A DNA stretch of 35,162 bases, taken from assembly GCA_964389345.1 (NCBI GenBank), contig CAYMER010000070.1, forward strand, positions 1-35,162. Reading direction: 5' to 3'. Position 1 is the first letter of the stretch. Every line of letters starts with the position of its first letter. The DNA comes from an uncultured bacterium. GTDB lineage: Bacteria > Omnitrophota > Omnitrophia > Omnitrophales > Aquincolibacteriaceae. A model generated the notes under the pieces. The model made no database searches. It worked only from the letters and a program-made list of their open reading frames with translations, and had not been told where the DNA came from. A program made the position numbers and the translations under genes. Positions 1 to 24,000 of this stretch are shown here, piece by piece.

Positions 1-3000
1 TCGCTCCGGCTTCAGACTTCGCAGGGACGGATTCCGGACGGACCGTGCTTTCGGGCTTAAGCAAAGAAGCTTGGACCGCATAACTTTCCGGCGTTACTTT
101 GGGATCGTGAACAACATTTCCTTCTGTCAGGGCGCTTCCGACCATTTCCCGCGCCCAGGCCAGGACCCCCGTCAGGAACTGGTTATCCTCCGGCGGTCTC
201 ACAGCTCTGGGAAGATCGTTCGGTTTCCACTCGGCCTTCCTGAAATCTGTGATCGTGCCTTTTTCATCAATTGCAAAAAAGAATTTCCCGAACTTGGGAC
301 CGACTTTGAAAACGATATCCTCACCCTCATGCATCTTGACCCAAAGTAAAAGATCAAAGGTCACCTGCTTAACAAAATCGCTTTGGGTCGCGTCATAGGT
401 GAAATGCACGAGGTGTTGCCCGAACGGCACATTCATCTCCGCGAGGATCCCCGATTGAGCCTCGTCTTCAACAACCCCGATGTTCCCGACCACATGGATC
501 TGCCGAGTTTCCGAACGGGCGTTTTGGATTCCATCGAGAAATTTGCGGGCGCGGAAAAAACTTTGACTTCCCTTGCGGCCGCCGGAAACAAGGTCCCCGG
601 CAAGAAAAACTTTCGCCATCTTCCGGACGCCGGCATCCGGAGAAGAAACCTCAACGGCGCGCAGTGCGTCCCGCACAGCTTCCGGTTCCATGGTTTTCAC
701 CCGAAGTGCCGAACGGGCAGGAGTTGTTTTTTTCTTAAGCAACAAAAGCTGGACGTGGTCGCCGTCACCGCCGAACGGAATACGCAGGGTCCAGCCCTGA
801 AGCAGGTCGTCGCGTTCTCCGTAATCGATCCCCGCCAAAAGATCCTGCACCCGATACGCGGTCCCCGGTTCAATGATCTGCTCAAGACCGGCCGAGACCT
901 GGGTCGATACTTTTCCGTCGCCCGCCGCGACTTCACGGCTGGCGGCATCGAGCTGGATCGCAGCCACAACGACATCTCCTGAAGCATTTTTTGAGGCCAA
1001 AACAAGCGAGCTTTTATGCGAAGAATCCAACACGTAAAAATGATGTTTCCCGGCCCGGGGCGCATCTTCTCCCAAAGCAGTTTGGATATTCGCCAGGGCG
1101 TGACTAAGCCTTGAATGGAACGAAGGATCCCAGGCGGAAACCCGCGGCGTATTCAACAGATCGGGTCTGAAAAGACCGATGAGCGTCATCGTAGGTCTTA
1201 TTTTATCCCCAAAAAAATCAGCGGCTTCCTTGGGATCATCGCTTGCCAGGATCTCCAGCTGCTCGAAAAGATGGTTCGATGTAGGCGCCCCTTCCGGAGA
1301 CTCATAGCCGGTTCTTGCCTGGCGGATCAAATGCCTGAGAGAAGACGCGTCCTGCTGTTCTTGGAGACGGACGGGTTCCAGGAGGCTGTTCGAAAGCAAC
1401 GAATACGGAACCGGCTGCAGCTCAAGGATCTCAAGACCCAGAGGCATGGGAACGCCGATCCCCAGCACGGTCACGGGATTTTCTTTTGCATGGATCCTGT
1501 GATTTTTTCCGAGTTTGGGTTCCCTCACCTGGACGAACCGCACATCGGGCGCTCCCTCCACCAGCAGATTAAAAGCGGCGGCATCGATAAGGACCTGGGT
1601 GCGCGCCTTGTAACCTGTAAAACTCTGTTTTTCTTCACGTTGAACGGGGGCCCCAAGATTGAGATCCACCAGCACGGGCTTTCTGCCCTTGGCTGCGAAG
1701 ATAAAAGACTGGATCTTTTGATCATGGGTCCTGAGAGAATGCGCATTCGAATGTCCCTCAAGATAGCGAGAAATGTATTCGGCCCACGGTTGATAAGTTT
1801 CCCCGGTGCCCTGCGTTAATTCGTCTCTCAAGGCTTTTGCCTGCTCCGGATCCGCTTTCACATAGCGCTCGAACCAATTCCCTGCCATGCGCACCAAAAG
1901 CATTTCTGTAAGGTCCATGGCCTGTAAACTGAGAACTATTTTTTGTTTTTCATCGGAGTCGGCCGTTTCCCTAGCCATTTGTTCGATCCTCTTTCTTAAA
2001 GGATCCACTCCCGGAGACATGCCCTGGAGACTCGCCAGGATATATTTAAAAACGTCTCCCTGATTAACATGATGTTTCAAACTGTCCAGGGCATCCATCC
2101 CTCGCGTCGCCTCTGGGTTTTTCGGATCAGACCGCTGCCAGGTTTTGATCTCACGGAAAGATTTGAACATGCCGAAAAGCCCCATCCCTCTTGCGTAATG
2201 CGTCCTTCCGTCCCGCATCCCCTGCCAAACGAAATCAGCGGCTTTCATGGGCGCGGCATAATCCGAAGACTGGAAATGGAGCTGGCGGAACAACGCTTCG
2301 CTCTTTTCCTCATCCTCAAGTGTCTGTTCGAGCAAATAAGCGTGGGCCATGGCCTGGCCGGTCACCATGTCCACTTTCCAGGAAGCCGCTACGGATTGAT
2401 ACATGCGTTCGCGCCGTGTTTTGGGATCAGAACGCAGCGTCTTGATCTTTTGCAGGGCTTCCACAAGACTTACCACGGACGGACGCCGCCCGCCGCCCTC
2501 CTGAGTGCTCCGCTCATTGTCATCGTACCAGACAGGAATTCCGTTCAAAACCTCCCACTCACCGCGCTTGACACGCTCCCGCATGATGTCATGAGTAATG
2601 ACCGTTTTGTTCGGCTCGCCTTTGTCGTTCAAAACCCGGATGATTTCACCGGTCCGGATATCGCGAATGACCCAGACCTCGGGATTCGCCCCGCCGAAAA
2701 CGCCCATGACCTCGCCGCCGTTCGTTTCATTCTTTTCCATGCTGGTGGCCGAAGCTTCCAGGTCCTCATCGGAAAGCATCATGCCTCCCTCCGTTCCGCG
2801 GAAAATGATCTGGGCTTCATAATACGTGTAATCTTCCAGCGTCCCGATGCGATCCTCCAAGCCGAGCAGTTCGGTCAGGAAGCGGATATAAAGGAAACGT
2901 TCATGGGCGTCTTTCAGGTTAAAAGTCCGGCCGCCGATCAGCAGCCGGCCGATCGTTCTCCTGAGTTCCTCGATCGAGCGCTGATCCTTTAACCGGCTGC

Positions 3001-6000
3001 GGAGCACCTCGAATTCATTTTTGTAGCGTTCCTCGTTCTTGTCGATGCCGTCCTTGTAAGCTTTCCAGAATCCGAAGAGCGAAATGAAAGGCCTCCAGGG
3101 CTCATCCTTATCATCATAATTCTTTTTCTCCCAGGGAACATGGACCCCCGCCTCGGCGCCTGCTTTCGTCACGACCTCTTTCAATTCCTGTTCATATTTG
3201 TCCGGTCCTTTATAATCGACCTGGCGACGGACATTGGCAACGACCGGATCGTTAAGAAGCAGATCGCGGACCTGAGAAAATTCCGAATCGAGCCTGGTCC
3301 AATCTTCCGGCCGGTTCTCCTGGGCCGCTTTTTTGACAAGAGCCTGCATTTCTCCCAGACGAGCCAACAGCTGGTCCATGCTCATGTTGTTTTGTTGTAT
3401 ATAATCCTTGAACGTGTTCCCGAGCCAGTCGCGTCTTCCCGTAAAACCGTATTTTTCCCGGAGCCAGGTCAAAAGGGTTGCCGCATCCGCGGCGCTCACC
3501 CATTCGTTCTCGGATTTAAAAATCTCGCGAAGGTCCGGATGTTGGTCCAGGATCCCAAAGAATTCGCGGTCATTGGCTTCCGCCGGAAGTCCGTACTCGG
3601 GAGCAGGCGTCGCAAGCGTTTTCTTGTGATGCTCGATGACCGCTCTCCGGTCAGGAGACTGCCAGCGCGGGAGGAAAACACCGTTCGTGCTGCGGATCTG
3701 CTGCTTGGCATCATAAAAACCGCGGACCTTGTGCCAGGCGGTTCGAAAAATGTTATTGAGGAGCGCGGGAAGATGTTCCACAAGCCCTACGCCCGAGATC
3801 AGATGAAAGATCTCCGCCGTAAAATCCGCAATGCTGATCTTACCGTCATGAACGATCGTTGAGCGAAGCCACTCGGGAAACCCGAAAAAACCGTAATAAC
3901 CTTCCCAGGCCTCAAAAAGACCGGGGCGGAAGACCGTATGATTGAGCGTGGTCCGTTTCACGCGCTTGAGATGTTTGAGAGGAAGGCTGACAAAAACTTC
4001 GTGGTCGAGAAGGATAACATTATCCGGATCCGGGTTGCCTTCAAGATGGCGGATCAGAAGTTCGCTCGCCTCGCTAAAGGCGGCCATATGGATCTCGCGC
4101 ATCCCCGTATCGTCATACACTTCATCAAAGAAAGGTTTTTCTCTTCCCTCGGCGTCAACGGTGTACCCGTCCAAATAATGTTGCGGCGACCGGTGTTTCT
4201 CATAATAGGTCTTGTAGGCCCGGAAATAGACCGTGGCCGGGGCGTTGTTGATAACCGTTTGGACCCGCAATTTGACCGGGGTCAATTCCATGGCTTTTTT
4301 GACGATCTCGCCGAAAAGGATCCTCTGTCCCTTCGCATCCAGTCCCTTGACCGGCTTGTTCTTGATGAAATTCCAGAGAGGGTGGATGCCGGTCACATTC
4401 ATCCCAATCGCGGCCCAGGCTTCGAACAGATCGGGCAAGAGAGCCCCGAGACCGCCTGTTAATGTTGTTTGCGAAATTTTGCCGGCCGTGTAAGCATCGT
4501 ACAATTCCTCTATTTTTTTCAAAACGTGCATGGGATAACCGGCCTCGAATTGCCGGCTGTAAACATGCCTCTTCGCCAGCTGAGGAGTTTTCGCTTCAGC
4601 CCAGGTCGTCCCTTCTTCCGCCCGCATCTCGGACCTCGCCGGAAGCCAGGCATCTTTTTCAATGGCAACAGCGTCGCTCGCTCGCAGTTCGGAGCGCCTT
4701 CGCAAAAGACTCATTTCCCCGGCAAGAACCGCATGCGCACTGCTAAACTTCGCGACAAGGTCACCCACGGAATCCAAAGCCCGCGGATGATTTCTGCGGA
4801 GAATGTCCTCAATGATGGCCTTCATAAGGTACAAGCGGCTATTGGGCGTGAAATGGAATACCGGCGGCGCCCCTTCTTCTTGCGTGACGAGCCCTTTCAA
4901 TTTTAGCGCCTTCACGAACATCGCGAAAAGCATGTCCTGCGGGTAGTTCGGCGGTTTCATTTTTTGATAATCAAGCAGGGCGACAAATTCATTCGGCATC
5001 AGGACAAGATTTCCACCGTGGTAATCCCACCGGCGCACCCCTTCCCCTTCCAGAACGGAGGCCACTTTTGACACGCGAACCATGACGTTAAGGACGTGAA
5101 GGAGATATTCTTTTTCGGGCAAAGACTGTATCTCTTTAAGGTGGTGCTCCCAATCCAGTCCTTCGATATAGGGATAGACGATCGTGAGGGCCTCAGAACC
5201 AGCCCAAAGAGGCATGGCCTCTCCTGTGCTGGTTTTAAAGGCTCGTACCGCTTTAAAAAGAAGCGGGTTATAGACGCGGGCCTGGACGCCGTGCCTCGCG
5301 AGGATCTCATTGGCCAGGTTCCTCGGCTCCGTCCGGTTCCCGAGCGCGGACATCAGCCTTTCGATCGCTTCCTCCTCCTGCTCCTGCTTGTCTTCATCAT
5401 AGAACCTCTTGATGACATAGATCCTGCCGGAAGGATCCCCCTTGATCGTCGCGCGGTAAAGCTTTGAGGGACTGGACGACGACTTCGAGATCTCTTCAAA
5501 AAGAACGAAGGTTACTTCGTCCTCGAAAGAGCTATGGGGCGCCTGCGGCCGCATCACAAGCATTTCGTCCATTCTCCGGTCATGCTTCTGGTCCCGGATC
5601 CTCCAGGCCGCGTGAAGATGATCGAGCACTTCGGCGCTTTGAAGCATCCACCTGTGGAACTGGCCGGGTTGCAGCTTGAAATAGATCTTGGCCGCGGTTC
5701 CCTGAATATTTTCGAGCCGGACATTCTGTCCGACATAGAATTCCTGGCCTTTTCCGCGGCCCTCCTCCGCAAAAGGGTCCCAGAGCCAGAAATCGCCGAA
5801 GGCCTCCTCGATCGTGGCGGACTTGAGGTGGGGCTGCCTTTTTAAATAAGCGTTCTGTATCTCGGGAAAGTCGTTCAGGTCCACATCCACGACCCCTTCC
5901 CGTAATTCTTCCGAATGGTTATCAATCACCAGGAAGCGATTGGTAGAACTGGTCTCCGGAGTACCGAGGAATGCTTCCACTCCCGGCCTCGAACGAACCA

Positions 6001-9000
6001 CCAGCTCTTTTTCCTTCTCAAAAACAGGACGCTTCCCCGTGGAAAGCATTTTGGAATTCACAACCTGTTCCCATTCCCCCATATCCCGCCGGATTTTCGA
6101 AGGCGCTAACACCTGAGAATCCCCGACTGTCGGACGGACAGGGGCAAGGCTTGCTCGCAGTTCGGAGCGGGATCTGACCTCCGGGACCTCCGAACGGGAA
6201 ACAAAAGAACGGACCGCGGAGTTGATGCGTTGAAGGGATTCCTCGCGCGTTGTGAGGATCTTCCTGAGTTCGCCCGCATGAACCAAGCGATCGATCCATA
6301 ACAAAAAGGCCGCGGGAACGCTCAGCACGACCGCCACTTCTCCAAATGCCCGGGTCAAAAGAACCGTCAGAGCGATGACGCCGCTCCAGTAGATCCCGTT
6401 GACTTTCAGGGAACGCCAGAGAGACGGTCTTAAACCATTCGCAAAACGCGCAAGCAGGGACAATATTCCATCCATATCCCGCTGAACCAAAAACCCGTCT
6501 AGTTCTTTACGATACTCACGAGCCTTGAAAAACCGCCCCCAAAGCTCGAGTGCGCCGTCATGGTCCAGCATCTCGAACCGGACCTCCCGGTAAAAATCCT
6601 TCCGGTCCAACTCACCTTCCGCTTGTCCCCGCATCTCGGAACGATTGACGCGGTCGATGACGACGATGCGATAGAAGCGTTTTGCAGGAAGCGCGCCTCC
6701 CGTGAAACTGCCGTCGTCGATCCAGCTCGCGACCGTACCGTCCGCCACGATCCCACGCTGCACAAGCTGCCAAGAACCTGTTTTGAGATCATCCCGGTAT
6801 TCGATCTGATAAACAAAATTGGTTTGGGTCTGGAAGGTGACCTTGAAGTTCCCGTTCGTTTCTTTAAGCCCCTGGATCACCGGCGCTTCGACCGACACGA
6901 GCGCCTGCCGCCGCGTGGCATTTGGATCGATGCTTAGCGTCGTTGTTGCCGTAATTGTCGCAGTCGTATTGGTTTCGGCAAGCGCACCCGTCCCTTTTTT
7001 TGCGATCATCGCCCACCCGCCGTTATAACCAACGCTTCTGATTTGGGTGCTGCCTAAAGCTTCAATGGCCTGATAAGCTTGTTCCACACGAGGATCAGGC
7101 CACGCTGAACCACCAGGGCCTTGGATAAATCCTCCCTCTTCGGCAATCGCCATAATGACAATTTTTCCGTTAGGAATACTATTCAAATAGCTTACAAAGG
7201 TCGGAAAATAAACGTGCGGATGGCCCCATACGTCCCCTTCCATAAAATAAGTATCAAAATGTTGAAAATCTTCCATACGATTTCCAGTATAAGAATCCAG
7301 CACCGCAACATTGATCCCGCGGCCGCCTTTATCTCCGCCGGCGCGCGAAAAAACGGTTTTACCATTTAAGGTAAAGACCGCGGGGTTGCCTGAAGTCGCG
7401 GTCATCACAGGATTCGTCACCAGAGGAATGCCGTTTTGACCGTCCAAAGCAAACCTCTGCTGAAATGCCGGGACAACTAGCTTCGGTTGGCGCCCGATGT
7501 TAAACCATCCGAACCATTTTTCGTCGTTGTAGCCGTCCGGCTGACCATAATTCACTTCGGTCGAGTAGCCCTGACTTCCGGTGTAACCGCCTTTATACCA
7601 TTCATCCTGAAATTCAAAAGCAAGCGCACCGGATACGATCCCGCCCGTTCTTTCCGCGGCAAGATTGAATAATATTTCATCCCAAAGACCGATATTGAAA
7701 TCCCTCTGCATGGCCTGATCTTCGCTGCCGCCATACATCGATGTGTGTTTAAAGGAATCCGCGCCGAACTCGGTAACAAACATGGGCTTGTTCGAGATCC
7801 TCGCCCATTGGGAAAACGCATCCGTAAAACTTGCATTGCGGTAAAGTTGCAGCCCCCAAACATCGACGCTCGGGACCATATTACCGATAATCTGGTTTGA
7901 AAAATAAACCGTTCCGTCTGTTGGTTGCCATGGCGCAATATCGGGTTCCAAGTAATGATAAGTGCCCCAGGCGGATGTCGTTTCTGACATGGGGATATGC
8001 AGGTCTCCGTAAAAACTGACAACAGGGTGATTTGTATCGATCGATCTTACGATTTGGGCTGAGCGTTCCGTAAACTGAGCCGCAGCTTTTATATCGGGAA
8101 AAAACCCATAATAACGATTAATATCCCACTCATTTCCGATACCCCAGCCAAAGATCGCCGGGTGATTTTTGAAAGCGTTCACGACCACTGGGATATTGTT
8201 AGAATTGGCCGTATCGCCGTAATAAGGTGCGGTCGCCGGCAGAATTACTTTAATCCCGTACTTGTAAAACATATCAAGTACGGCCTTGGCTTCGGCATTC
8301 GTTCCCATGTCGTAATAAAGCCTTGCGACATTAACGCCATTGCTCGCCATCAGAGGAATATCATTGGTGTACCACTTAAAGAATTCTTGACGAAAAGCCG
8401 GCGCGTTAGCCGCAGGATCCGAATTTGTGGAGGCTGGGCTCCAATTCACACCTTTTATCGTGAACGCATAATTCGTCCCCAATGTTCCGTCTTGCTTGCG
8501 TTCTTTGACAAAGATCCGGCGATCGCCGGGCTGGGTATAAACTTTCGTCGGCTGGGTCGGAACGCCGAATGCGCCGGCATAAGTTTCTTGGGCCCATCCA
8601 AAAAACGCCATGACGCCCATGAGCACAAATTTCATCAGGCTTGTCCGCGCCTCGGAACGGACAGACCCTGGACGAGGAGCCGCGAAAGAAGCGTCGTTCG
8701 ATTGCAGAAAAGCATGGACCCTGGCCCGCTCCGCGCCGGTCATCTCCGGAGTCCCTTGAGCGACCCGGCTGGACGGGATCACTTGCTGGAATCTCAAGGC
8801 TTCCTTGAGTCCCGCGATCTCTTGAGTCCGGCCGGCGGTCAGTTCCGGAACGATACTGCGGATCCGCCTCTGGATCTCTTCAAGATGCTTTCCGCCGAGC
8901 CCTTCTTCGACAAGCTGTGCCGGCAAAGGGCTCACATTTCCGAACGAGGACACCGCGCCGCGCGCGCCCAGGATCAGCGCATCATCGATCGCAAATTCAT

Positions 9001-12000
9001 CGCCCGCATAAACAGTGAATCCATAATTGGAATATTCTTCCGTCAGGTGTTGCGGCCCTGAATTTTTAACGAAGGCGACCCGATCCGCGATCTCGGCGAG
9101 TTTCCGCGCAGGAATATTCTTTCCTTGGGAGAGCGCGGGATTGTTGTAAACGCCGACAGGCAAAGAAGTGGCCATTCTGCGGAAATGATCCGGGATCTGC
9201 CCGGGATCTGCCAAATAATAAAGAGGACAAACGACCAACGCATGAACACCCCGGAACGCCGAAACTTCCTGGATATTCTTCAAGGTCTGAGCTTCGGTGT
9301 TACCTGTCACGTTCGCGTGAACGATCATTTTCCCGAACGCTTCGGCAGCGGCTGCCGCAAAAAGTTCGATAGCCTGCAACCGCTGGTGATTCGTCAGTTT
9401 ATCGAACTCTCCGGTGCGACCCATGACAAAAATCGCGCGGGTCCCCTGGCTGATAAGATGAGCGACTAACTGCCTGATCCCGGTTCCATCGATCTTTCCG
9501 TCATGGGTGAGCGGCGTGATCACCGGAACGATGTTCGTCGCCGGGGTTACATCGCGCCAACTCCGCGACTCCTGCCCGGAGCGATTTTCGCTCCGTCGCG
9601 CCGTCTGAGGAACTTCGCGCCTCGCCTTCCTTTCCGGGCGGCGTTTCTCAGCGAAGATCTTTATTTCGTTTTCCCCGGACCCCGTCTCGGCCTGGATCGT
9701 AAAATGAATGTCCTCACCAAGATCGTGCATGGCTCCATAAAGAATCATGCTCTTCCTGTTCCAATCCTGCACTGTAAGCGGAGCATCGAAAGACTGCTCC
9801 TGGGCACCGGCTAGAAGAGTGATTCTGAAAAATCTTTCTTCGCCTGCGAGGCCCCTATAAACCAGGTCCCTGATACGCTCAAAAGCCGCGGAAAGGTTCC
9901 CTTCGGCCCTCACTTCAGAGCGGCTGGCGGCGACATTCAGCTCCACGCGCATTTTGCTGGGATCGATCCTTGTCGTGGGATTATCCAGGATCCCTTGCAT
10001 CAGTTCCTGGGCGCGCTCGGAAATGGCATCCTCCGTCACATGGTCCGCAGAAACGGTTTCCCCTGTCCTTAAAACCGTGAGGGCCTTCTCGAGATAGACA
10101 AAAGCAGACGGAACGGAAAGGTCGAAATTATTGTAGTTCTGAGCCGGATGGGTCACCCACCTCGGAAGTTCCTGACCTCTCATGGAAGTTAAAAATGCTT
10201 CGAGTTTTTCCGCCGTCAGGTCTCCTTTCCGGATAGCCTCAAGTTGTCTCAAGGCGGAACGGATCATCATCCCCGCCGGCACAAGATATTCCCTCCGGTC
10301 CCCGGGCGCTTTGGAAAGCTTGTAAGACTGCCGGGCCAGAGGGCTTTCGGAAGCGGCCGTAAATTCTCGGATCGCTTTGTCCATGAAACTACCGGCCTGC
10401 GCCGCCGCAGCCTCGGGCAAAGTCCTTGTTTCTTGTTCAGAGCGATTTTCGCTCCGGTGAGGCTCGTCTGCCTTCGGCAAGGCGGCAGCGCGGGCTTCGG
10501 GACGACCCTTTTCGACAAGGGGGGCCACGATCTGCGATTCCAAAACTGTATGGGTCCCGACGGCAGAAGAATCTTTTCCGTCTTTCCTCAAGAGATCTAA
10601 AGTATTGTTCAAGTCGGCGACCAAAAACCCAAGGCTTGTTTTTTCATCCAGAATTTTTTCATTCGCCAGAAAAACGCTTCCTTTGTTAGCCAGGGTCGCC
10701 GCCGTCCGGCCCGCTTCTTTTTCCAGGATCCTCGCCGTTTGTTCCGGCAAAGTCCCGGTTTGGCGCCCCTCAGCTGTAAAAACAAGAAGGGGCTCGAAAT
10801 CAAAAGAATAAACCTGCAACAACCAGCGCCGCGCGTTTGCAAGCGCTTCATCAACCTTTCCCTTTAGTTCGGATGAAAGGCCGGCGCCTGTTTCCTTGGA
10901 AACGTCACTAAAAAGTTCGGTGATTTTAACTTCAAGTTCCAGCCCTTCGGCCTCCAGATTCCTCCGGTGGTTCGCCTTCCCCGTTCCGCTTTGGGTCATC
11001 ACTCGCGGCAATGCGGCGTCGCTCATTTTAAGAATGGCTTCCTGGATCCCGGCGAGCCCTTTTTGAGGGTCGATGCCTAAAGGCGGTTCCGGCCCCCAAT
11101 GACGGCTGTCGACGAAACGGTCCGTTACATCCAGAAGCACGCGGAAGAGGAAGTATTCTGCTTCTTCCCGCGAGGACAGCGGGTGATTCTTCCCGAGCTT
11201 GTTCGTGATCTTCCGGAGTAAGGGGCCTGTTATGCCCGGATGACCCGCCACCATTTTCTGAATGTCCTTGAAAATATCGTTCTCTGCCAAAGCGATCAGA
11301 TTCGAACTCGCTTTCATAGCGTTCTGGAAAGTCTGGTAGGTCTGAAGGGACTCCTGGCCGGAAACCGTCATGTTTGAGGCGGTAAAAAAAGCCGGCCGTC
11401 CGGGCTTGTGCCAAAAGTCGAAGAGGATCCATCCGGCCCCTGCTACCGCCGCCACCCCGGCAAAAAGGGACAAGCCAACGAAAGCCCTCCGCCGGTTTTG
11501 TTGCCTTGCCTGTTCTTTCTGTAATTGTTCGCGGCGCGTGGCTGCTTGTTGCCTTACCGTTTCCGCTACTAATTCGCGTGCCGACGCCTCGGCTGCTTTC
11601 GCCTGCTCGGCTAGTTGTAATCGTTCTGCTTCTTTCGCTTCCGCAGTTCTCAATTTCCTTTGAGCATGCTCTTCCTCGCTCACGATCTTTGCCGGAAGGT
11701 CGCTCGGCACGGTCTCCCCTGTTTCCCGTTGAAGTTCTTGGAACAACTTTGTGATGACTGTTCTGTCAGGAAGGGTCAGCAGGACTTCGGGCTCCACGCG
11801 CGGGTCCGTGATACGAAGCAGGTCTCTTTGCCAGTACACCAGAACCGCTTGCGGATCTTCGGGATCTCCTTTGAAATGATTCGAAAAAAGAGGCCTGCCG
11901 TTCAACGTTGCTGTTTCGTCCGTGCCTACAGTTCCGGCCGGAAGCTGGAACTCATATTCGAGCGAGACATTGCCGCGCAGATATCCCGCGATAGTTTCCG

Positions 12001-15000
12001 TCCGTTCCCGCTCGATCTCTTCCGTCGTTTTGTCCGGGCTGAACCCGAAACGGGTCAAGCGATTGAAGAGAACGTCGTCGGCAGGCAGTCGAACACGGAG
12101 AACCGCTTCTCCCTGTGTGGTTAGCTCCCGGAGAATGTCAAAAAGTTCGGAGGCGGTTTCTTTTCCGGCTCCGGCTTTTTTCAAACGCTCCAGATCTTGA
12201 TGGCCTTGGTCCAGAACGATCTCCTTCTCTCCGACCCGGGCCTCGGAACGTTTCATCGGCATCGGCTCTTGCGAAAGGATCTCCTCTGCGCCGGGACGGC
12301 GTTCCAGAAAAAAATTAATGGCAAGACTCCATGCGTATTCGTCTGTTGTCTTCTCCGGAATGTTTAAAAGAGTTCTGGCCAAATCCCGCAAGGAAGTTTC
12401 ATCCTCTATTCTCCCGGCATTCTTTGCGCGATCAGCGGCCCGAAGGACCCAATCGACCAATATCTGCTGATAACGACTTGCTTCGCGCGCTTCCGAACGC
12501 GGCGAGAAAGTACCGCTGACGATCACGCGCGTTTTGGATCTCACGACGTCCGGTTTTCCCTTCTCGGAAGCAACGGGCCGGATCATCAATGTCGAAAGAT
12601 CGTTGACCCTTCGAACTCTTTCCCGCCAGAAGATCCGGTAAGATTCATCCGCCTTTAACTGCAAGCCCTTCAAGAATTCAGCGAGATGCTCTTGATCTTC
12701 TTCCTTGAATTCCCCATCGGAGGCATCCAGGATCACGCTTGGACCTCCCTGCGCATGAGAAGATTTTTCAAAAAGAACGGCAAATTGACCTCCCCGGAAA
12801 CTGCTCCGGTCCTTCTTGCCCGCTTTCTCAGCCGCATAACCCGCCGCTTCAAAAACCCGCGCCCGGATGTCCTTACCTAAAACAACCCATCCCGTTTTTT
12901 GGGAAAAGGAAGCTTTCCTGACGTAGCGCCGGAACCCCTCGACAAGATCCCGCACGATATCCGAAAGAAAATTTGAAACGCTGTAGACCGCGCGAAGGAA
13001 CGGACTGGCCTTCCATTCCTTGATCAGTCCCTCGATGAAGGCTTTTTTATCCGAAACCCGGCCGATGCGCTTTTCGAGAACAGAAAGTTCTTTGAACGTC
13101 TTCGCGCCGATCCAGGCGAGGAACTCGAACCGGGTCTTTTCATCGGAGATCAGTTCCGCGAGCTCGGAGCTGTAATAGCCGATCCCGGCGGGCCTTTCGG
13201 CGGACAGTGTCTGTATCGCAAGAAATTCATGACCGACGAGAAAATCCCCTCCTTTAAGGAAGGACGCGCCCACTTCGGCATTGTGTTTGATCCAGAAATC
13301 CGGCGGAAGGCCTATCAAAGGCTCGACGCGCCCTTTGAGCTCGATGAACGGCATGTCGGGCTTATTGATGTCGACACCGCTGAACACCCTCAGTCCGTAT
13401 TCTTTGGCGAGCGCGACGACCCTGCGGATCTCTTCGGGATCGTTCCGGTGCGGCATGATCGCGATCCCGGGCACGCCGATCTCGACCAGGTATTCGAAGA
13501 TCTTCCGGAGGTTCGCCTCTTCGTCGGTCTTGTTCCCTTTGGAATCACCGAGATAAGGATAGATCGGGATACCCCCAGCAGCCTTGATGGCCTTGACCAC
13601 GTCCGCCATAGCCGGGGATTCATCTTCGCCGGGGGCAAAGAAACAAGAGAGTTTCACGCCGGGTTTCAGGAACGCTCCGCGGAGGATCTCCATCGGAACG
13701 TCGATCTCGCCCCGCTTCACGGAATCGATCGCCTTTTGAGCAAGAGCATCATCGCCGAGGATCTTTTTATAATATTCCAGGTTGTCGCCGAGCCGGTACG
13801 CAAGGCCGGCCATCAGATGCCGGTCCGTGGTATTCGCAATCTCTCCCTCGCCTTCTCCTTTTTCCGCCAGGATCGCGACATGGTTGTCATAGTCCACAGT
13901 CACGGGAATCCCGAGCTGCGCGAGCTTTTCATTCACTCGGCCGATCATGAGCTTATTCCGCTCTTCCTTTGCCTTCCGGACTTTCTGGAGCAACGCTTTG
14001 ATCAGTGGGTGGCCCGGGTTCGGCAGCGCGTGGCAAAGGAAATAGATCATATTGGGCACGCCGGGCGCATTCACCACAAGCTTGCCGAGGTCCACGCCGC
14101 CCCGGAGGATCCCGGTCAGGCTTATCCTCATCTCAAACGCGGACGTGAATTTCAGGCCGAGGATCTTCGCGGCCTTGCGGGCGCGCTTGATACCCTCTGG
14201 TGTGTCGTGGTCGGCAATCCCGCCGTTTCGAAGACCCGCGCGACGCAGCCGGTAGACGATCTCTTCGGGATAATAAGGGCTGTAGGAATCCTTGCTATGG
14301 ACGTGAACGTTGTTCTCTTTGGAAAGAGGCGAAACATAAATTTCATCCCGCCGGATCATCTCCGCGAGTTCACGGACCGCATCCATCCGGTCGCTCTCTT
14401 TTTTGGAGCGCAACCGTTTCTCGAGCTCAAATTGCCTTGGCGTGGCGATCTTATGGGCCATTTCACGAAGCAACGGATCCTCCGTGTCAAGAAGGATCTG
14501 CCGGAACTGGTCTACGAACATCGGCGGGATATTGGTGATAAGGTAAGGCAGGTAGCGCCACTTGAAGACCCGCGCCGCTTCCGTCCGATTGCTCACGGCG
14601 GCCGCTTTCAATCTAACGGCCAGGAACGCCATGGCTCCGGTATAATTGCGCTTCTTTTCCGTCTCCTTGCTCGCAAAGAAATTATGGAACTCCGCAAATT
14701 CCGCTTCCGAGCCGAAGCTCCTTACCTCGGAACGAGAAACCGGAGTGAACATAATGTTGTTGATGTTCCGGACAATCTGACTGCGGGTCAGATCCGCGAC
14801 GCCGGGGGCCCCCGAACCGGTCCTGAACTCCAGGTTCCTTAAGACCTGCGCTGGAGTTGCTTTAACGGGAGTCTCGATGCGAAGGGTGGTTCCTTCTGCA
14901 ACCATATGGCCGAGACCATCCCGGGTCTTAAGCCGCGCCCCGATCTGGAAAAGGATCTTTTCAACCGCTATTTCCGGGCTGACAGCAACACCCTCGATCA

Positions 15001-18000
15001 CGGGTTCCCATGCCACTAATTCGGCACGGACCCGTTGAGCAAAAGCCGGAGAAAAGAAAATGATGATCCCGTATCGAGTAAGATCCATTCCAAAATGTTT
15101 TATATTCCTTACAAGACCGGTGCGGAAATCATGTTCTTGGAAGGTCGAGATCAGAGGAACTTCGTCGCTTGCCCCAAAATCCAGGATTCCGGTCCCAAGA
15201 CCAAGCTGTCTCACCAAGATCTCGGCGATTCTGCGGAGAAGGACAACGCCCTCTTCGCCGGTTCTCTGTTTAAGTTCCTCATTAAGAACCAAAAATAGCG
15301 GATCAAAATCAACGATAACATTAAAATCCTTTTTCTCCTGCGACGCCTCCCAAGTCCCCAAGGCCCTCCTGACATGCCCGGCGACAGCTTGAAGGACAAG
15401 AAGTTCCGGCGCATTGCTCGACGGGCGTAAAAGCTTTTGAAGATAACCCTCCACAATCCCGAGTTTCGTCCGGATCTCCGCGACGTTTTCTTTCGTGATC
15501 CGTTCCTTAGACCCATGAAGGACATTCAGGATCTCCTTCATGGCCGGAACAAGAACCTGGTCCACCTCGCTGTTAGAGCGGTTCTCACTCCGCCGAACAG
15601 CGTTTCCTGCTTCGGAACGGGTCTGGTTTGGAGCAGGCGCAATAAAAAAGGAATCGCCGGCGCCGGATACTTCGTAGGCTTCGTTTCTGTCCAAAAGACC
15701 TTTCTCCAATATCTCCTTTAACGCGATCCGTCCCTGGATATCCCATCGCAAGATAACAACACCCTTGAATTTTCCATCCGTGTATTCCCTTAGCCTGGCC
15801 GGATTCTGGGGCTGGCCCCTCAAGACTTCCTGTTGCCATGTCCCGGCCGAATACACCCTCAACCGTTTGGGATCTTTTTCAGGAACAATAACAAGTCTCG
15901 AGTCCCCACCGAATTCTTTCCGGAACAAGGAGGGTATGGTGATCCGGTCTTTAGGATCCAGGTTGTGCGTAAAAGCACCGGCAAAAAGCACTGCCGGATT
16001 TTCGCGTGCTTCAGAACGAAGTTTTTGGGCGACAACCGGCAAGGCGACGAAGCGGCCGGCGGAAAGATCGTTCAACGCTTGCGCGATCTCTGCCGGGGTC
16101 TTTTGATAACCACTCGATGCAACGTCATTAAGAGGGACGCGAACCGCCTCTGCAAGAGGTTGATCTCCCGGGATCATGAAGAGCGGCAAGCGAGTGGTCC
16201 CCGCCTTGAAGGTCCCGTCTTGTCTATCGGAAAAACTAAAGTCAAGAGTAGCGGGCTTGCCGTTATCCTGCTGGGGCCGTAACGTTTCTTTTCCACGAGC
16301 CACTTGGATGGCATAAGTCACGGAGAAGCGATCGCCCAAATCGTCCAGCCTGGTTATAACGCGGTCCGTCAAAATAACCTTAGTGGTCCCGCCTAATACA
16401 GGAATTTCCACCCCTTTCGGCAACGCTTCAATTTCCGCAGGAACGCCGGCGGGGAATTCGATGCGGAAAGTCGTTCCTTGCTTGCCGTCAACGCCGCCCT
16501 CGGGTCCGGTCGATTCCAGACGAACCGTACCGCCGTTCTTCTCGGCCAGTTTCTTGACGATCACGAGCCCGAGCCCTGTCCCTTTTTCTTTGGTCGTAAA
16601 ATAAGGTTTGAATAGTCTTGCCTGTTGCTCTTCCGGGATGCCTGCACCATTATCCGCGATCGAAATAACGACACGCTTGCCGTCGTCAGAAAGTCCGGCC
16701 CTGACCACCACTTCGAGTCCTGATCTTTCCCAAGGGTACATCGGCGCCGGACGCGATTCCTTCGCATTTTTGATAAGGTTGGTAAAGATCCGCTCAAGAT
16801 CGATCTCGTCACCCTTGATGAGCGGAACATCCGGAGCGATTTCAAAGCGAATCCTCCCGCCATATTCGCGCATCCCCACGGAGCGGGACTGAAGACGGAT
16901 GAATTCCCCGATATCCAGTTCGACGATGCGGGAAGGAGCGGGAAGGTCCTTTAAAGAAGCTTCGAGTCTTTCGATCAGGTCGCTGATATTCGAAAGACTT
17001 CGTTCAAACAGCCGGCCCTCTTCCCCTGTTCTCAATGGTTCCGGTATTCCGAGATCTTTGAAAAATTTTTCCAAACTAAATGTCCGCTTCCACTCCAGGA
17101 GCGCTTCAAGGGCGTATTGGCACTGTTTCAGTATCCGTTCGGCGTTCTCCGGGGTTACTTCCGTGCTCCCCCGCGGCGGGATGTTCCTCTCTGCGAGAGC
17201 TTTTTCGATCTCCTTGAAAGGGGCGTCATTGAAAGGAACCTGCTCGTATCTCCATAACCCGATATAAACATCCGCTCCGAATAGTTTGTTATTAATATCG
17301 TGACGGATCTGCGAAAATTCCAGCAATGCCCTCGCCGCATCTTCGACGACATTCCTCGTCTCCGAACGAGCGGCGGGCGGAGTGGACGGCTGAACAGCAG
17401 GAACTACTTTCGCGGGAGCGGATTTTCTCCAGGGTTTTTCAACCCAAAGATAACCGATCGCGAGACCGATCCATAAAACGCCTACGGCGATCGCCAGACC
17501 GATCACCCATTTTGTTAAATTGTCTTTTTTCCGGGGCGCTTGCTTCACCGGCACCGGCGGCTTTGCAGCAACCGACGGAGCCATTGTCCTGGAAACACGC
17601 TGTGGCACCTTTAAAACAATCCTCTTTCCGCCTTTCAAATCGGACGCCGTCCCAGGATGATTGACCGATGAACCAGATTTATTGCCCGTCGAACCGGGAT
17701 TGAGAACAATATGAGTAGCGTGAGCGACAGGGGTGACCGGAACAGCTACTACCGGTTCCGCTTCGATCTCCCAAACAACTTTCTCGAAAAGAGAGGCATC
17801 CGCTGTCCCGATCCCGAACGCTTTCTGAATATAGCCATTCAGATCGATCAGCGGGACAGGATTTCCGTTGTTTATTTCGAAGCGCTTGTGCCCATTTTGC
17901 ACTAACAACTGCCTTAATTTTTCCGGGAGTTTATCCAAGCTTTTGAATTCGACTTTGGAGACCCGGACCTTCCGGAGATCGATTCCTTTGAATTCCGGCT

Positions 18001-21000
18001 TCCCGCTTTTCGTGAAGATTCCCACCATGAGGTCCGCCAGCATCGCCGTTCCTTCCAACTCAAAGTCATACTCTCCAAAAATCATCTCCTTCGGCTCGGT
18101 CCTGATCTCCGAACGTAAGGCGTTTTCGAGCATCGCAGGATCGTTCCACCTGAAAGGTTTTTTGCGGCCGACTTTGATCTCATGCTCGCCGACAGGTTGC
18201 GCGCTGACGCCGAGCCCGGCAAGGACCGTAAGAAGTTGCTCCCGGCTCTGCGGCGTGAATTTTTCAGTACCGGCGCTGATGAGAAGCCCGCCCCGTCCTT
18301 CGCGCTGAACGATCACGTCCGAAAGATCGCTTCGCTGTTCGGAGCGTCCGATTGACAGTTCAAAAGGAGCTGCGGCCTCCGGAAATTTCTCGCGCCAAAG
18401 AATCGGCCCTTTGCCCGGCGCATCTAAAAGAACGCGTAAGGCAGCGCCGAATGTCGCGTGGCTGAAGATCACGCCCGTTTTCCCGTCCAGGATCTTATCG
18501 ATCGCAAGGATCTCATCGGCCGCCTTTTCAAGAAGATCGATAAAGGATTCGCCTCCTCCGACGGAAAGGGTCGCATTGCTATCGTTGCGATACGCCAAGG
18601 ATTCCCGAAGAGCTTCTTCGCCATAATAAGCAAGGATTTCATCGTCCGTTAAATTCTCGAAGCGGCCGTAGCCCATCTCGGCAAGCCCGGGACGTACAAG
18701 CGCTCGCACCTTGAAATGTTCTTCCGAGGGCTCTGCGGTCTCGCGCGCCCGGGTCAAAGGGCTCACGAAAAATCTGAAGACTTTATCGCCGGCAAGAAGT
18801 TCCTTTAAGAAAGAGATCGCCGCTTCGGCCTGCTCGCGTCCGGCAAACGTCAACTGATTGCTCCTCTCGTCCGCGGCCCCTTGATACCGTCGCTTGCCAT
18901 CCGTGCGGTCGAGCTCCATAAGCTCCGTTCTGCCGTGTCTGACAAAAAGGATCCTGGACTTCAACGGGAGCGGTTTGAACTTTTCGGTATAAACGATATT
19001 CCCCGTCTTGGGATCCCAGGAGAGCCCGAACCGATCCAGGATCGCCCGTTGCCTCTCCGTCGGCTCCGTCCGTACTTCAGAACGCTTCGCCTGCAGTCGC
19101 GCATCGATCCGCGTTAAAGCTGCGATGCCTTCTTCATAAACGTGGGCCTTGGACCCGATCGCTTCGGCCCGGTCTCCGACTTCGCGCCGGATCATTTCAA
19201 TCGTCTCGGGGATAGCATCCGTTTGGATCACGAACGGGATCTCAAGCCCCAAGGACTTCATTACGTCGGTGATCGCGAGCGCTGAATTCTTTCTCCGGTC
19301 CTCGGGGCCCATCGCATGATAAGTCCCGATCCCAACCAGGTGAAAATCCAGCAACGCCGCATCAATGGTCGCTCCCTGTTCCGTCAAGATCCGGATGGCT
19401 TCCTCCGCGTCCCGCGCGCCAAGGATCTTTATTCCTGGAAAGATCATCGGGAGATAATCTTGAAGAAGCCCGAAATCCCTTCCGTCATCCACCAGCAGAA
19501 GCGTGGCGATCCCCTGCCGCGCCTCAGAGCGGGTCACTCCCAACCGGGACAATTCTCTGGCGATCGCCGCGTCGCCTCGCAGCGTCCGGAACTCGCTCGT
19601 GCCTTTATCCTGAAGGGTCATCTCGAGGCGCCGCTCGATCGCGTGGTACATCAGGATAAAATTATCCACTTGGGCTTGCGGCTTCGCATAATCCTTGACC
19701 GGCGTCGGTTCGGCGCTCCGGTTCCGCGGATGAGAATGTCCTATCGCCGGCGCGGGGATCATAAAAAGGTTTGAGGAAGCCATGGCGCTCCTGCTCCCGT
19801 AGGACGCGGACAATTCTGCGGCCGTAGGAAAACCCCGGCCTTTGGTCAGGAAAATATACGTTTCGCCTTGCTCCGCCCTGAAGACCTGGAAATAAAATTC
19901 AAACCCGACGTTGAGGAGCGTCTTTAATCGTTCGAGACTGATCGGCCCCTTGAAAACCCACGCCCATTGTCCGTTGTCCGCTTCCCTCGAATCCTGGATG
20001 ACCTGCTCCACCGGCACGGCAAGGGACTCGAAAGCCGGGAAGAAGAACTGCTCGAGGACCGCCTGTTCATTCTTAATATTGCGGTGAGCGTTTTCTTCCC
20101 GTTTTTCAAAGCTTACTGGCTCTGAACCGTCGATCGCGGCGACTTTCCTTGAGAAAAATTCATCGATCGCGTGGTTGGCCACGAAGATCTCGATATCATC
20201 GTTTGTCCGCAACAGGGCACTGATCTGTGCGCGCAGGTTCTTCGCATTCACGGACTTTTGTCCCGCCACGGCGGGCGACTGGAAGATCCTTTTCGGGCCT
20301 TTTTCGGCTTTTAATCCCTTGAGAAATTCTCTTACACTCCCTACATTAATTTTTGCGGCAGGGCTGACCGGGGCTAATTCCTCGTAGATCGCGAGCGCCT
20401 CATTGGCCAGCGCTGCGGCCTGCAGACGGTCTTCGGTGCCTTGCGCCCGCTGGAACATCCGGGTCGCTTCGCTCAGCCTCGCATCAACATTTTCCCGAAC
20501 CTCGGAGCGGGCTGTTGGGGCCTTGAATTCTTCGATCGCTTCCGGACTTAATACGTACCATCCTTGTCGCGGCCCCGAACCTTCAGAGCGCGTTCTTTTC
20601 GGAAAATGACGAATGTATCCTTCCAGCACGGCGCGCTGGAAAGACGGCCGCAGAGCCCCTGCCGGTTCTTTCAGCTGTCGCAGCGGTAAAATGCGCGGGA
20701 ACCGGCTCATGTCGCCCGTGAGGAGATCGACCTCCGGGAGATGCCGCAAAATGAAGCTGAACATGAACGGAGACAACGGGTTTTCTCTTTTTTGAACAAG
20801 ATAGCGAAGGAGCCCCTGCATCCGCTGCAGGACAAGTTCCGGCGACAACTCTTTATTAAGAACGATCCCCCGCGCCTCCGAACGGTTTCCCGATCCGGAG
20901 GGCTGCGCTCCAGAAGTGCCGGATGTCCCTGGGAGAGCCTCTGCTTTTTTCTGGGATCTTTTCCATAACCGAAAGCGATAAATAAAATCCGCGATCGATG

Positions 21001-24000
21001 CCGCAAAAATAACGGCCAAGACCACTTTCGCCCTGGAAGACCATGAAAGCCCAAAGGCAAGCCCGATTCCTCCCAACCAAAAAGGCATCGCGACAGCTTT
21101 GATCAACATTGTTTTTCTCGCTTCTCGCTTTTCGCCCTCTTGTCCTCTCGCCTCGGAGCGGGCGGAAAATCCGGGGTAGGAAACTTTGCCATAGAGCGCG
21201 CTCAGGACCTGCATGCAGGTCTTCGGATCTTCAAAAACAATGAGGCCGTTTTGCCGCAAACGGTCCCGGATCGCTTCCGCGTCCGGCGAAGGGTCGGTCC
21301 CCGCGAGAATGACCGGCTTGGTATGCGGCAGGCTTTCAAGGAACTGCAGAAATGCCTTGTTCCCTCCCGGTTCGGCCGCCTCCGTGTGGACCCATTGCAA
21401 ATAGCCGCTTACGATCACGTCGAATTTCGGGGAGGCCATGAGGTGTTCGATGAGCGGCCTGGCATGATCTTTCAGGGTGGAAGCCCCGGTGATATCGAAA
21501 AAATTTCTCGAATGGTCACCGAGCTTGAACTCCCTAATGAGCCCGGCAAGCTCCGGACCGGGTTCCGGCGTCACGACCGCCGGTTGATAAGCTTCGCGCA
21601 GTGCGATCACGGCATCCCTTGCGACGCCGACGTCGTGGCCGCTTGTCCAAAAATTAAAGACCCGGGCGCCGCGCTTAAGCCCCGGATGGGTATATTTCGA
21701 CAACGCTGCCGCGGAACTGAGGATCTCCACCCAGAGTTTGTCGTCGTTGGTGACGACCGCTCCCGCCTGTTCGAACACAGACGCGAAATGCTCATACTTC
21801 CCGGCCTCGGCTCCCGTATGACCGGACACGGCCGCCGCTCCTGCGTCCGTAAGGCCTTGTTTGCGGATCACCACGCACACGCCCCGCTCCCGCGCCTCGA
21901 GGATCAGTTTCTGCAACCGGCCCGCGTCCTCGAAGTCGCGCAAGCCTTCTATATAGAGCCCGACGACCTTGATCGCCGGATCGTTCTCCAAGATGTATTC
22001 CAGAAAATCCGCGGCCCCGAGGTCGAACGCGTCGCCGTTGGGAACGGCGTATTTGACCTTGCCGTACCAGCGATTGAAATAACTCACGGCCGCCGCGGTC
22101 AGCCCGCCGCTTTGCGCGATAATCGCGACGTTCCCTTCCTCGAACACGTTCATGGCCGAGGATTTTCCCGCGAACGTCGCCCTTAAGCCGGGGATGACGG
22201 GGCCCATGGTATTCGGCCCGAAAAGCGCCGCCCCTTTGGGCGCCTTGGCCGCAGCGGCCTTCAGCTGCTTCGCGAACCTCCGGTTCTTGCCCTCGAACCC
22301 GCTGGCAATGATCATTACTTTTTTTCCGGCAGCGAGAAGTTTTTCCGCTTCCAAGGTGGCCGCTTTCGGACCCATGCAGACAATATAAAGGTCCGCATCC
22401 TTCGCGGGGCCTTTATTCCACTTCGGAATGAACGGGATCGCGGGACTGCCGGTCCGCTGGAAACTTTCCCCTCTTTCCGCGCCGTTCTTGTAAACAAAAT
22501 GAAGTTCGGCCAGTCCTCCGGTCCGGAAACTTTCCATAAGATGGTCCATCATGTTCACGATCTGGCCCCTGGGACTCGCACCGATCACGGCAATACTTCT
22601 GGGATGAAGCACTTCCCTGATCCGTTCTACGTCACCGATAAACCGCAGTTCGGGTTTTTTCCCGACCTGCATCACGGCACCACGGACGTCGATGACCCCA
22701 TTCTTATCGCACAGGAGCGGGTTGATATCGACTTCCCGGATCTGGTAGCTTCCTTCCCGATCGTATTTTCGCTTGAACAGGACCAGCTGCCGGATGATGC
22801 GCCTGAGCTTTGCGATGTCCTTTTCTTCCTTGAACGGAAGCCCGAGCTTCCGGTAATTGCCATAGACAAGGTCCCGGCCGTACTTCGTGGACCGGATAAG
22901 GTCTTCGATCTTGAACGGGAACCGGTAGTCACGGAACGCGCTGTCCGAACGCCAGTTCACCAGCTTTCCGCCTTCGCCGAAACTTATGAGCCGGCCGTTA
23001 ACCGTGTCCGCCAGGCCCAGGAGCATTTCGCTGACTTCGTTTGCCTTGTCTGCCGACTCGTAGACCATCACGCCTTTTGCGCCGGGAATATCGAACATCC
23101 GGGGAAGAATGGCCGCGGCCTCCTCGCGACTGACGACATTCACGCCTTTGACGTTCCCGGAACCTTTGTCGGATTTATGGAGCTCGGACGTAATGATCTT
23201 AAGGACCAGTTCGCCGTTCCCCGGGAATTCCGGCAAAGGATCTTCCTTTTTCCACACAAACTTGAAATCCGGCACCGGGATCCCGGCGGCTTTAAAGATC
23301 TCGAAAACTTCGTGTTCATAAAGGGTCGTGCGGCTTTCCGGTTCGGCGAGCGCTTTCGCGATCAGCTCATCTGCAACCCGCACCGCCTCTGCCAGATCGG
23401 GAGATTCGCTAGCGCGCGCCTCCGAGCGGTTTAATTCTGTTTCCGCAGCTTCGGGCCCGGCTTCGAATGCTTCTATCAGATCCTCTGCTTTTTCAATGTC
23501 CTCCTCGACGCCAAGGTCCCGGATCCGCCTTAACAGCTCATCGATTTCAATCTCAATGTCCTCGATAACGTCCCGGTCCCGGTCCTCGACGGGCTCGCTC
23601 ATGTTCTCATCAAGATCCCATAAAGCTCCCTGAAGCTCTCCCAGCAAGATCCCGGAAACTTCTTTTTCCAAAGACAGCTCCTCTTCTGTTTCATTTCCTT
23701 CCGGCATTTGCTCCGCGTCGTGTCGCGCGCGCGCCGGTTGCCGGATCATGTTGTCCAGGATGACCTCGAATCCTTTTTTCCAATTCAGATCACTTGCCGC
23801 AACCCCGGACTTCAAGGCCCGCAACTCGTCTTCTGTCAGGTCCCGGAGCGCCCTTTTGACCTCTGCTTTCCAGGAAGCAAGATCCTCTTTTGTGAAGTCT
23901 CCGACGACCTTATATCCCGAAATTTTGCTAATAAAAGACAGGGGGGTTACCGCGGGTTTTTCTTGCCGGTACCTTTCCTGTGTGAAGAAAAAGGGATCCA

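Follow-up and report, generated by a model that had tools for sequence, protein, structure and literature searches.

How does a sequence with the layout of a secretory signal peptide come to lie thousands of residues inside a single open reading frame (ORF), and could it still serve export from there? The question is raised by contig C70 of the Omnitrophota assembly G000 (1.78 Mb, 69% complete), a stretch of 35,162 bases that was analysed in its entirety and is called the window here. One minus-strand frame is open for 11,301 codons, from an ATG at 33904 to the contig end. Residues 8416-8443 of its product read RSEAR-TSL-MKFVLMGVMAFFGWAQETYA, where MKFVLMGVMAFFGWAQETYA ends at A8443 (8576-8578), and continue with GAFGVPTQ. 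This leader lies between a DapA-family module and a glycosidase of clan GH-A. A sequence-only reading of the window had described the segment at 8576-8659 as a fossil-looking gene start; the segment is present with exactly these coordinates. The evidence set out below makes it probable that a complete gene for a secreted GH-A glycosidase was taken whole into the giant ORF, and that the leader is its own Sec-type signal peptide, still in use.

The leader has the layout of a signal peptide

The leader stretch of the glycosidase cassette is TSLMKFVLMGVMAFFGWAQETYA. It has the positive n-region of a Sec signal peptide (K8425, with the junction residue R8420 five residues before the core), small residues at -1 and -3 (T-Y-A/G; here and below the slash marks the cleavage point) and an uncharged h-region whose 13 residues fall within the usual range of ~7-15, against 20-23 for the membrane spans of the giant ORF. 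Signal peptidase I cleavage is predicted at A8443/G8444. The N-terminal position of a signal peptide is lacking, and would need either cleavage at RSEAR or internal initiation. M8424 (ATG 8633-8635), which lies 8,423 residues into the giant ORF, is the retained start codon of the captured gene. On the insertion-energy scale of Hessa et al. (2005), the best 19-residue sum over the leader core is +5.45. The N-terminal signal peptide of the giant ORF (13 residues) gives +2.85, and the clear spans at amino acids (aa) 663-682, 5466-5488 and 7474-7495, of 20-23 residues, give -1.6 to +1.1. Because the core is short and its sum positive, the leader resembles a signal peptide and not a membrane span. 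AlphaFold2 models the junction and leader as a helix of low confidence that stands apart from the rest, and the folded part begins at about cassette residue 31.

The cassette is a complete glycosidase gene

Residues 8444-9087 were modelled with high confidence (pLDDT 88.2, pTM 0.89) as a barrel followed by an ILEI/FAM3-like domain and a β-sandwich. Foldseek matched the model to GH2, GH157 and GH158 barrels (probability 1.00, E 1e-14 to 1e-12, identity 11-18%). Two glutamates, E8592 (GNEW, 8129-8131) and E8712 (TEFG, 7769-7771), are invariant in 29 sequences and by analogy would be the Asn-Glu acid/base after strand 4 and the nucleophile after strand 7. By barrel fold and catalytic Glu pair alike, the downstream module is a clan GH-A glycosidase. 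It shares both features with the GH158/GH157 endo-β-1,3-glucanases and with GH2 enzymes (6DXU, 9G4N, 9P2F/9ORO, 6PAL). It differs from them in its low identity and in the additional ILEI/FAM3-like domain and C-terminal β-sandwich. Similarity to GH158 consists of a phmmer match to 6PAL (E 9e-5 over 88 residues, the best against the PDB) and a structural alignment at 14% identity.

Free-standing homologues were sought with the 664 residues from M8424 to N9087. Seven proteins (P0001-P0007) of 647-664 aa match this query at 51-66% identity and 96-100% coverage, the closest being from metagenome-assembled genomes of Verrucomicrobiota. Their N-termini are predicted signal peptides ending in ..TRNAYA/GPFGVP, ..TSDSYA/GAFGVP or ..ATAWA/GSYGVP, which align with ETYA/GAFGVP of the window. 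Their C-termini (..DRVTRT*, ..DRTTRS*, ..DVVNR*, the asterisk marking the stop) correspond to ..DRVN-RSEMR of the window, so that they end 1-3 residues from the start of the next junction. Two of the homologues stand in runs of genes of normal size, and in-frame stops precede their start by 6-30 codons. Since leader and ends align with those of free-standing genes, the cassette is an entire gene, its start codon and last residue included. Two proposals of the sequence-only reading are thereby borne out: that the segment forms the N-terminus of a secreted glycosidase that is in other respects an independent protein and is joined in frame to the preceding DapA module, for which it had advised a search for free-standing homologues with a similar leader, and that the ORF grew by gene accretion with RSExR at the joint.

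P0001-P0006, P0012 and P0017 all end in ..R(T/S/M/P) or ..R, and the final Arg of each aligns with the Arg that opens RSExR in the embedded copies. In P0002 the end is R-S followed by the stop codon TAA; this end may reflect a cassette released by a Glu-to-stop change, or simply a native C-terminal Arg.

Leaders are kept in trains and lost in ordinary fusions

Embedded copies were searched for by six-frame translation of 99 genomes of the class, by a scan of species-representative genomes and in a library of 1.84 billion proteins. Seven further copies were found in long frames, eight with that of the window (Table 1).

Table 1. Further embedded copies of the glycosidase: frame, and junction and leader up to the mature start
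Copy	Frame	Junction and leader
G016, same genus	9,449 aa	RAELR-TANWTR-LLIAGLIMLFSLV-REIYA/GTFGVP
G079		RSELR-LAVLAK-YVLAGIAGLFFSI-RDVAAQA/LGVP
G081	4,043 aa	RSEVR-KGRSPAKDSDRR-...-RDVVAQT/FGVP
P0131	fragment	RSEAR-IGSWMSFGLAGVMMFFAGI-KASLA/GAFGVP
G027, another family	4,684 aa	RGELR-LKSGLRKQIEGLTRRTFLRQ-AAVGPFALGAVLSSLF-KFQAKA/NIFGVP
P0115	2,269 aa, 10 junctions	RSEAR-LSQDSFEVPVSRRDFLR-TAALATAGFFLLPAGTA-RA/VGTNGVP
P0113/L034		leader present, RSExR absent nearby

All eight copies have the n/h/c layout, that is, a positive n-region, a hydrophobic core and small -1/-3 residues directly before (F/Y/L)GVP. In seven of the eight, R(S/A/G)ExR stands 0-20 residues upstream of the h-region. The leaders themselves are dissimilar in sequence, while the mature parts are 53-69% identical. 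Thus the G016 copy, 69% identical to the window in its mature part, has a leader of different sequence with the same architecture and the same YA/G site, and copies whose mature parts have diverged to 53-57% identity likewise keep the architecture. The leaders of G027 (TRRTFLR) and P0115 (SRRDFLR) are of the twin-arginine (Tat) type. Between R.E.R and the h-region there are 0-6 residues in four of the five junction-bearing Sec-type copies, 12 in G081 and 17-20 in the Tat-type copies. Such n-regions would be of normal length for a cut directly behind the second Arg.

Ordinary fusions served as the control. In 12 multidomain proteins without RSExR, in which the glycosidase domain lies more than 120 residues from the N-terminus, no leader precedes this domain, nor is one found before it in the Ig-repeat (immunoglobulin-like) surface proteins L015 and L016 from two genomes of the same genus. 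The leader is thus kept in 8/8 copies embedded in RSExR-type or similar long arrays of units (trains) against 0/12 ordinary fusions (nominal Fisher p ~5e-6, computed as 8/8 against 0/13 on related sequences that are not independent). Leader retention is therefore specific to train-type embedding.

The type of leader fits the export machinery

Among the five leader-bearing genomes searched, TatC (PF00902) was found only in G027, which has two copies and a Tat-type leader; it was not found in G000, G016, G079 or G081, whose leaders are all Sec-type. Of the two Tat-type copies, the comparison covers that of G027. In the class, TatC scored above cut-off in 60/99 genomes, with 3/19 in the genus of the window and 0/4 in that of G079 and G081, a pattern that suggests repeated loss of the Tat pathway. 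Signal peptidase I was found in G016, G079, G081 and G027. Leader type thus fits the export machinery of the host, a match that is suggestive rather than statistical.

RSExR marks the joints between cassettes

RSExR occurs 34 times in the giant ORF, whereas composition predicts 0.31 occurrences and the highest count among 2,000 shuffles was 4. The whole assembly has 179 of these sites, clustered in open frames that fill their contigs. The frame of the window thus has two features of a polyprotein: several complete, unrelated proteins in one frame, among them the glycosidase and DapA cassettes, and a conserved short motif at the joints. The codons of the motif vary among sites (Ser as TCN or AGY, Arg as CGN or AGR). 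Because the Ser and Arg codon families differ between sites, conservation is at the peptide level, and a DNA-level origin of RSExR was rejected.

The RSENR-S subtype of junction uses AGY Ser codons, and two of its four sites (9579-9597 and 10440-10458 of the window, minus strand) are a perfect DNA palindrome, CGGAGCG-AAAAT-CGCTCCG. The palindrome may be a chance product of the R-S...R-S peptide symmetry.

Comparison with the giant ORF of G016 (G016:C7:45137-73483, minus strand) shows that homology blocks begin exactly at RSExR sites and that their order differs, and the cassettes are therefore units of rearrangement. The heads of this ORF and of the window ORF (2-33904, minus strand), which come from the same genus, are 70% identical. 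Shared cassettes begin, for example, at aa 4941, 1116, 2891/6105 and 8416 of the window ORF and at aa 1135, 1429, 1653 and 4416, respectively, of the G016 ORF.

A crude scan for signal-like leaders after all junctions of G000 found 9/207, against a background of 2.1% (p = 0.03). This enrichment is modest. Most cassettes are of cytoplasmic types, and clear individual cases are therefore used instead of the statistic. In contig C330 of G000 (frame +0, aa 1-498), which overlaps with the end of C113, two successive uncharacterised cassettes each open with RSEAR-GLK and a predicted signal peptide. Their leaders end ..AGPALA/LE and ..AGSVQA/GD, and there is a single hydrophobic segment between both cassettes. 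In C219 of G000 (frame +0, aa 928-960), RAEIR-SSLTKQLMLAAVMGMMAFFVSAKEIYA/TD opens a cassette of an Ig-like surface protein, with a leader similar to that of the glycosidase cassette (MGVMAFF and ..YA).

Proposed processing and its alternatives

Release at the RSEAR site, Sec export and trimming after YA make up the best explanation of these observations, and a probable one. The giant chain would be severed on the cytoplasmic side, at the RSEAR site or directly behind it, which would give the cassette a new N-terminus, TSLMK-, acting as a normal n-region. The freed pre-protein would then pass through Sec, and signal peptidase I would remove the leader after ..ETYA, to judge from the homologues, leaving a mature protein that begins GAFGVP... 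The RSEMR junction downstream would free the C-terminus of the cassette. The sequences show that cassette boundaries are gene boundaries, that the leader is kept specifically in train embeddings and that leader type fits the export machinery in the genomes searched.

The G016 ORF bears directly on whether the chain is cut. Its 9,449 residues contain only three marked hydrophobic segments (the N-terminal signal, the glycosidase leader and aa 8865-8888), and a GalE-like cytoplasmic enzyme follows directly after the exported head. In an uncut G016 chain the glycosidase leader would therefore be a stop-transfer sequence, and the glycosidase would stay in the cytoplasm. Likewise, both C330 cassettes would be exportable only after separation, because of the single hydrophobic segment between them. 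The Tat pathway exports folded substrates, and Tat leaders are for this reason incompatible with thousands of attached residues.

These arguments also bear on a chain that would remain intact or be cut by signal peptidase only. The leader would then be an internal start-transfer sequence or signal anchor, which would place the glycosidase across the membrane and leave DapA in the cytoplasm. Such an arrangement would agree with the many membrane helices described in published Omnitrophota giants. Behind the glycosidase cassette, at aa 9170-9204, there are hydrophobic segments that could return the chain, and the positive residues R8420 and K8425 lie on the N-terminal side of the core, as an N-in orientation requires. 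However, a 13-residue core whose insertion-energy sum is positive is not long enough to span the membrane stably, and in G016 no returning helix follows the copy for more than 3,900 residues, which would give the wrong orientation. The Tat leaders of G027 and P0115, which could not drag thousands of residues along, the two successive leader cassettes of C330 and the loss of the leader in ordinary fusions also speak against an uncut chain, and we consider it unlikely.

Internal translation at ATG 8633-8635, by which the pre-glycosidase would be made separately from the same mRNA, had been offered as an alternative by the sequence-only reading. The in-frame ATG does stand exactly where free-standing genes begin, and the lack of a Shine-Dalgarno (SD) sequence is not decisive, since an SD core precedes only ~36% of crude gene starts in G000. 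However, the Met is found in the leader of the window copy alone (1/8) and is absent from the other seven (TANWTR.., LAVLAK.., KGRSP.. and so on). The aligned codon in G016 is ACC, which at two steps from ATG is uninformative. Nor are Met residues enriched behind junctions, with 29 in the 10 residues after 147 junctions against 31.8 expected. The sole SD-like sequence, GAGG, falls within the RSEAR codons, 14 nt before the ATG, and a promoter scan gave no minus-strand promoter-like site near the ATG. Internal initiation would moreover leave the C-terminus of the cassette unfreed. This alternative is thus very improbable. That the leader has lost its function and is left over from a fusion too recent for it to have eroded is scarcely credible, for although the start Met remains in the window copy and free-standing relatives reach 66% identity, the architecture persists in G016, with its different leader and the same YA/G site, and in the copies at 53-57% identity, the leader is lost in ordinary fusions and its type follows the presence of TatC; the description of the leader as a fossil does not agree with these findings.

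Several points weigh against release at RSExR followed by export. The case for processing is read from architecture. The head module of the giant ORF, the obvious candidate for the cognate protease, has only a sub-threshold Tiki/ChaN match in Pfam (19 bits against a cut-off of 27.7, E ~1e-3) and carries an export signal of its own. Co-translational export would put the RSExR downstream of an exported cassette beyond the reach of a cytoplasmic protease. Signal peptidase I, like TatC, was not found in G000, an assembly only 69% complete, and the match between Tat leaders and TatC rests on three lineages, with related genomes that are not independent. Finally, P0113/L034 retains its leader though no RSExR is nearby.

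P0113/L034 (contig CAZYZC010000007, labelled Planctomycetia) is a train of 4,983 aa without RSExR. Its units are divided by a repeated module of ~150 aa with membrane helices (..ARNDGYRHPAYVHN..HEGFEHHW..), which may be a different kind of joint.

Evolution of the cassette

A tree of 30 rows was computed with IQ-TREE. The embedded state requires at least five changes on this tree, and the embedded copies form a single group in no bootstrap tree. The window and G016 copies are sisters (100/99), and their nearest relatives include the free-standing P0001-P0003. The embedded P0115 and the free-standing P0012, both of the Tat type, are sisters (100/99), and the free-standing P0017 branches outside them. 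For P0115, capture of the whole gene together with its leader is the favoured interpretation of the tree. This applies to P0115 only; in the main clade the tree gives no direction of change between gene and cassette. With its five or more changes, the tree documents repeated conversion between free genes and cassettes.

Other features of the locus

The features of the giant ORF are given in Table 2. Pfam identifies nine unrelated enzyme families in this one frame.

Table 2. Features of the giant ORF in the window (all on the minus strand)
Feature	Position	Residues	Remarks
Giant ORF	2..33904	at least 11,301 aa	runs past the contig end; signal-peptide-bearing head module and ~35 RSExR-delimited cassettes
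Head module	31982-33904		own Sec-type signal peptide (predicted); motifs IHIQEAHANYDAQ, LEGA, LITGGFH
Junction RSENR	9581..9595	8104-8108	opens the DapA cassette
DapA/DHDPS-family cassette	8660..9580	8109-8415	Pfam profile 6-286 of 289; margins of ~12 to 16 residues to the junctions
Junction RSEAR	8645..8659	8416-8420	proposed processing site
Leader n-region TSLMK	8630..8644	8421-8425	contains ATG 8633-8635 (M8424)
Leader h-region FVLMGVMAFFGWA	8591..8629	8426-8438	13 uncharged residues
Leader c-region QETYA	8576..8590	8439-8443	T at -3, A at -1
Clan GH-A (β/α)8 barrel	7430..8569		AlphaFold2, Foldseek
ILEI/FAM3/POMGnT1-stem-like domain	6992..7321		PF15711, E 3e-16
C-terminal β-sandwich	6644..6892		ends ..RFYRIVVIDRVN
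Junction RSEMR	6629..6643	9088-9092	closes the glycosidase cassette

The head module has at least 10 paralogues in G000 (on contigs C37, C133, C81, C314, C166, C102, C227, C256 and C216, and at 34396-34716 on the plus strand of the window), and stand-alone homologues of 520-580 aa occur outside this assembly. Its AlphaFold2 model (pLDDT 76.7) gave no significant Foldseek match in the PDB, with erythromycin esterase appearing only at E >2. A plus-strand ORF of 299 aa (8162-9061) runs antisense to the DapA and leader region and most likely owes its existence to the long open frame of the opposite strand.

Relation to known systems and significance

Giant proteins of Omnitrophota, including a "multi-enzyme metabolic cluster" class, have already been published (West-Roberts et al. 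2023, 10.1101/2023.11.21.568195; 2026 preprint, 10.64898/2026.06.07.730766). The ORF of the window belongs with them by its Omnitrophota origin, its length of at least 10,000 aa and its many unrelated Pfam families, and it shares with the published giants the N-terminal signal peptide and the scattered membrane helices as well. Cleavage of such giants had been suspected, with the cleavage points stated to be unknown (West-Roberts et al. 2023, 10.1101/2023.11.21.568195), and internal signal-peptide calls were discarded as chunking artefacts (2026 preprint, 10.64898/2026.06.07.730766). Unlike in those accounts, cassette boundaries are set here by RSExR and by where free-standing genes end, and the internal leader is conserved. 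The proposed cut sites and working internal leaders do not figure in the published accounts. A literature search returned nothing linking polyproteins with Omnitrophota and nothing relevant on bacterial polyproteins with signal peptides, and a full-text search for RSEAR returned software names only.

Close parallels exist in other systems. At the capsid-prM boundary of flaviviruses, an internal signal sequence follows within a few residues of a site cleaved by a protease on the cytoplasmic side; signal peptidase then cuts this signal sequence on the opposite side of the membrane. As in such polyproteins, cytoplasmic and exported products would derive from one ORF. The present case differs in that it concerns a cellular organism and cassettes of housekeeping-type and secreted enzymes, that R-S-E-x-R is unrelated to the viral sites and that some leaders are of the Tat type. 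MARTX toxins, too, are very large bacterial proteins made of independent modules, which are released by inter-module cleavage. They carry their own cysteine protease domain, which becomes active in the host cytosol and cleaves after Leu. No such protease domain or site was found in the giant ORF, whose modules include metabolic enzymes and a cassette with its own export signal matched to the Tat or Sec machinery of the producer.

Whether the products of Omnitrophota giants are cut, and where, are the questions left open in the published work. A retained export signal bears on both, because such a signal works only on a free or membrane-insertable N-terminus. A leader that is kept in trains, dropped in fusions and matched to Sec or Tat is therefore indirect but specific evidence for a cut at RSExR. 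The prediction is that two new N-termini arise, first TSLMKF.. and later GAFGVP... Calls of internal signal peptides within giant proteins should accordingly not be dismissed as artefacts. More broadly, the balance is about even for the wider proposition that these Omnitrophota produce a large part of their ordinary proteins, cytoplasmic as well as secreted, as virus-style polyproteins cut at R-S-E-x-R by a dedicated protease. Each cassette would be routed by its own Sec or Tat leader, and whole genes would move in and out as start-to-stop cassettes.

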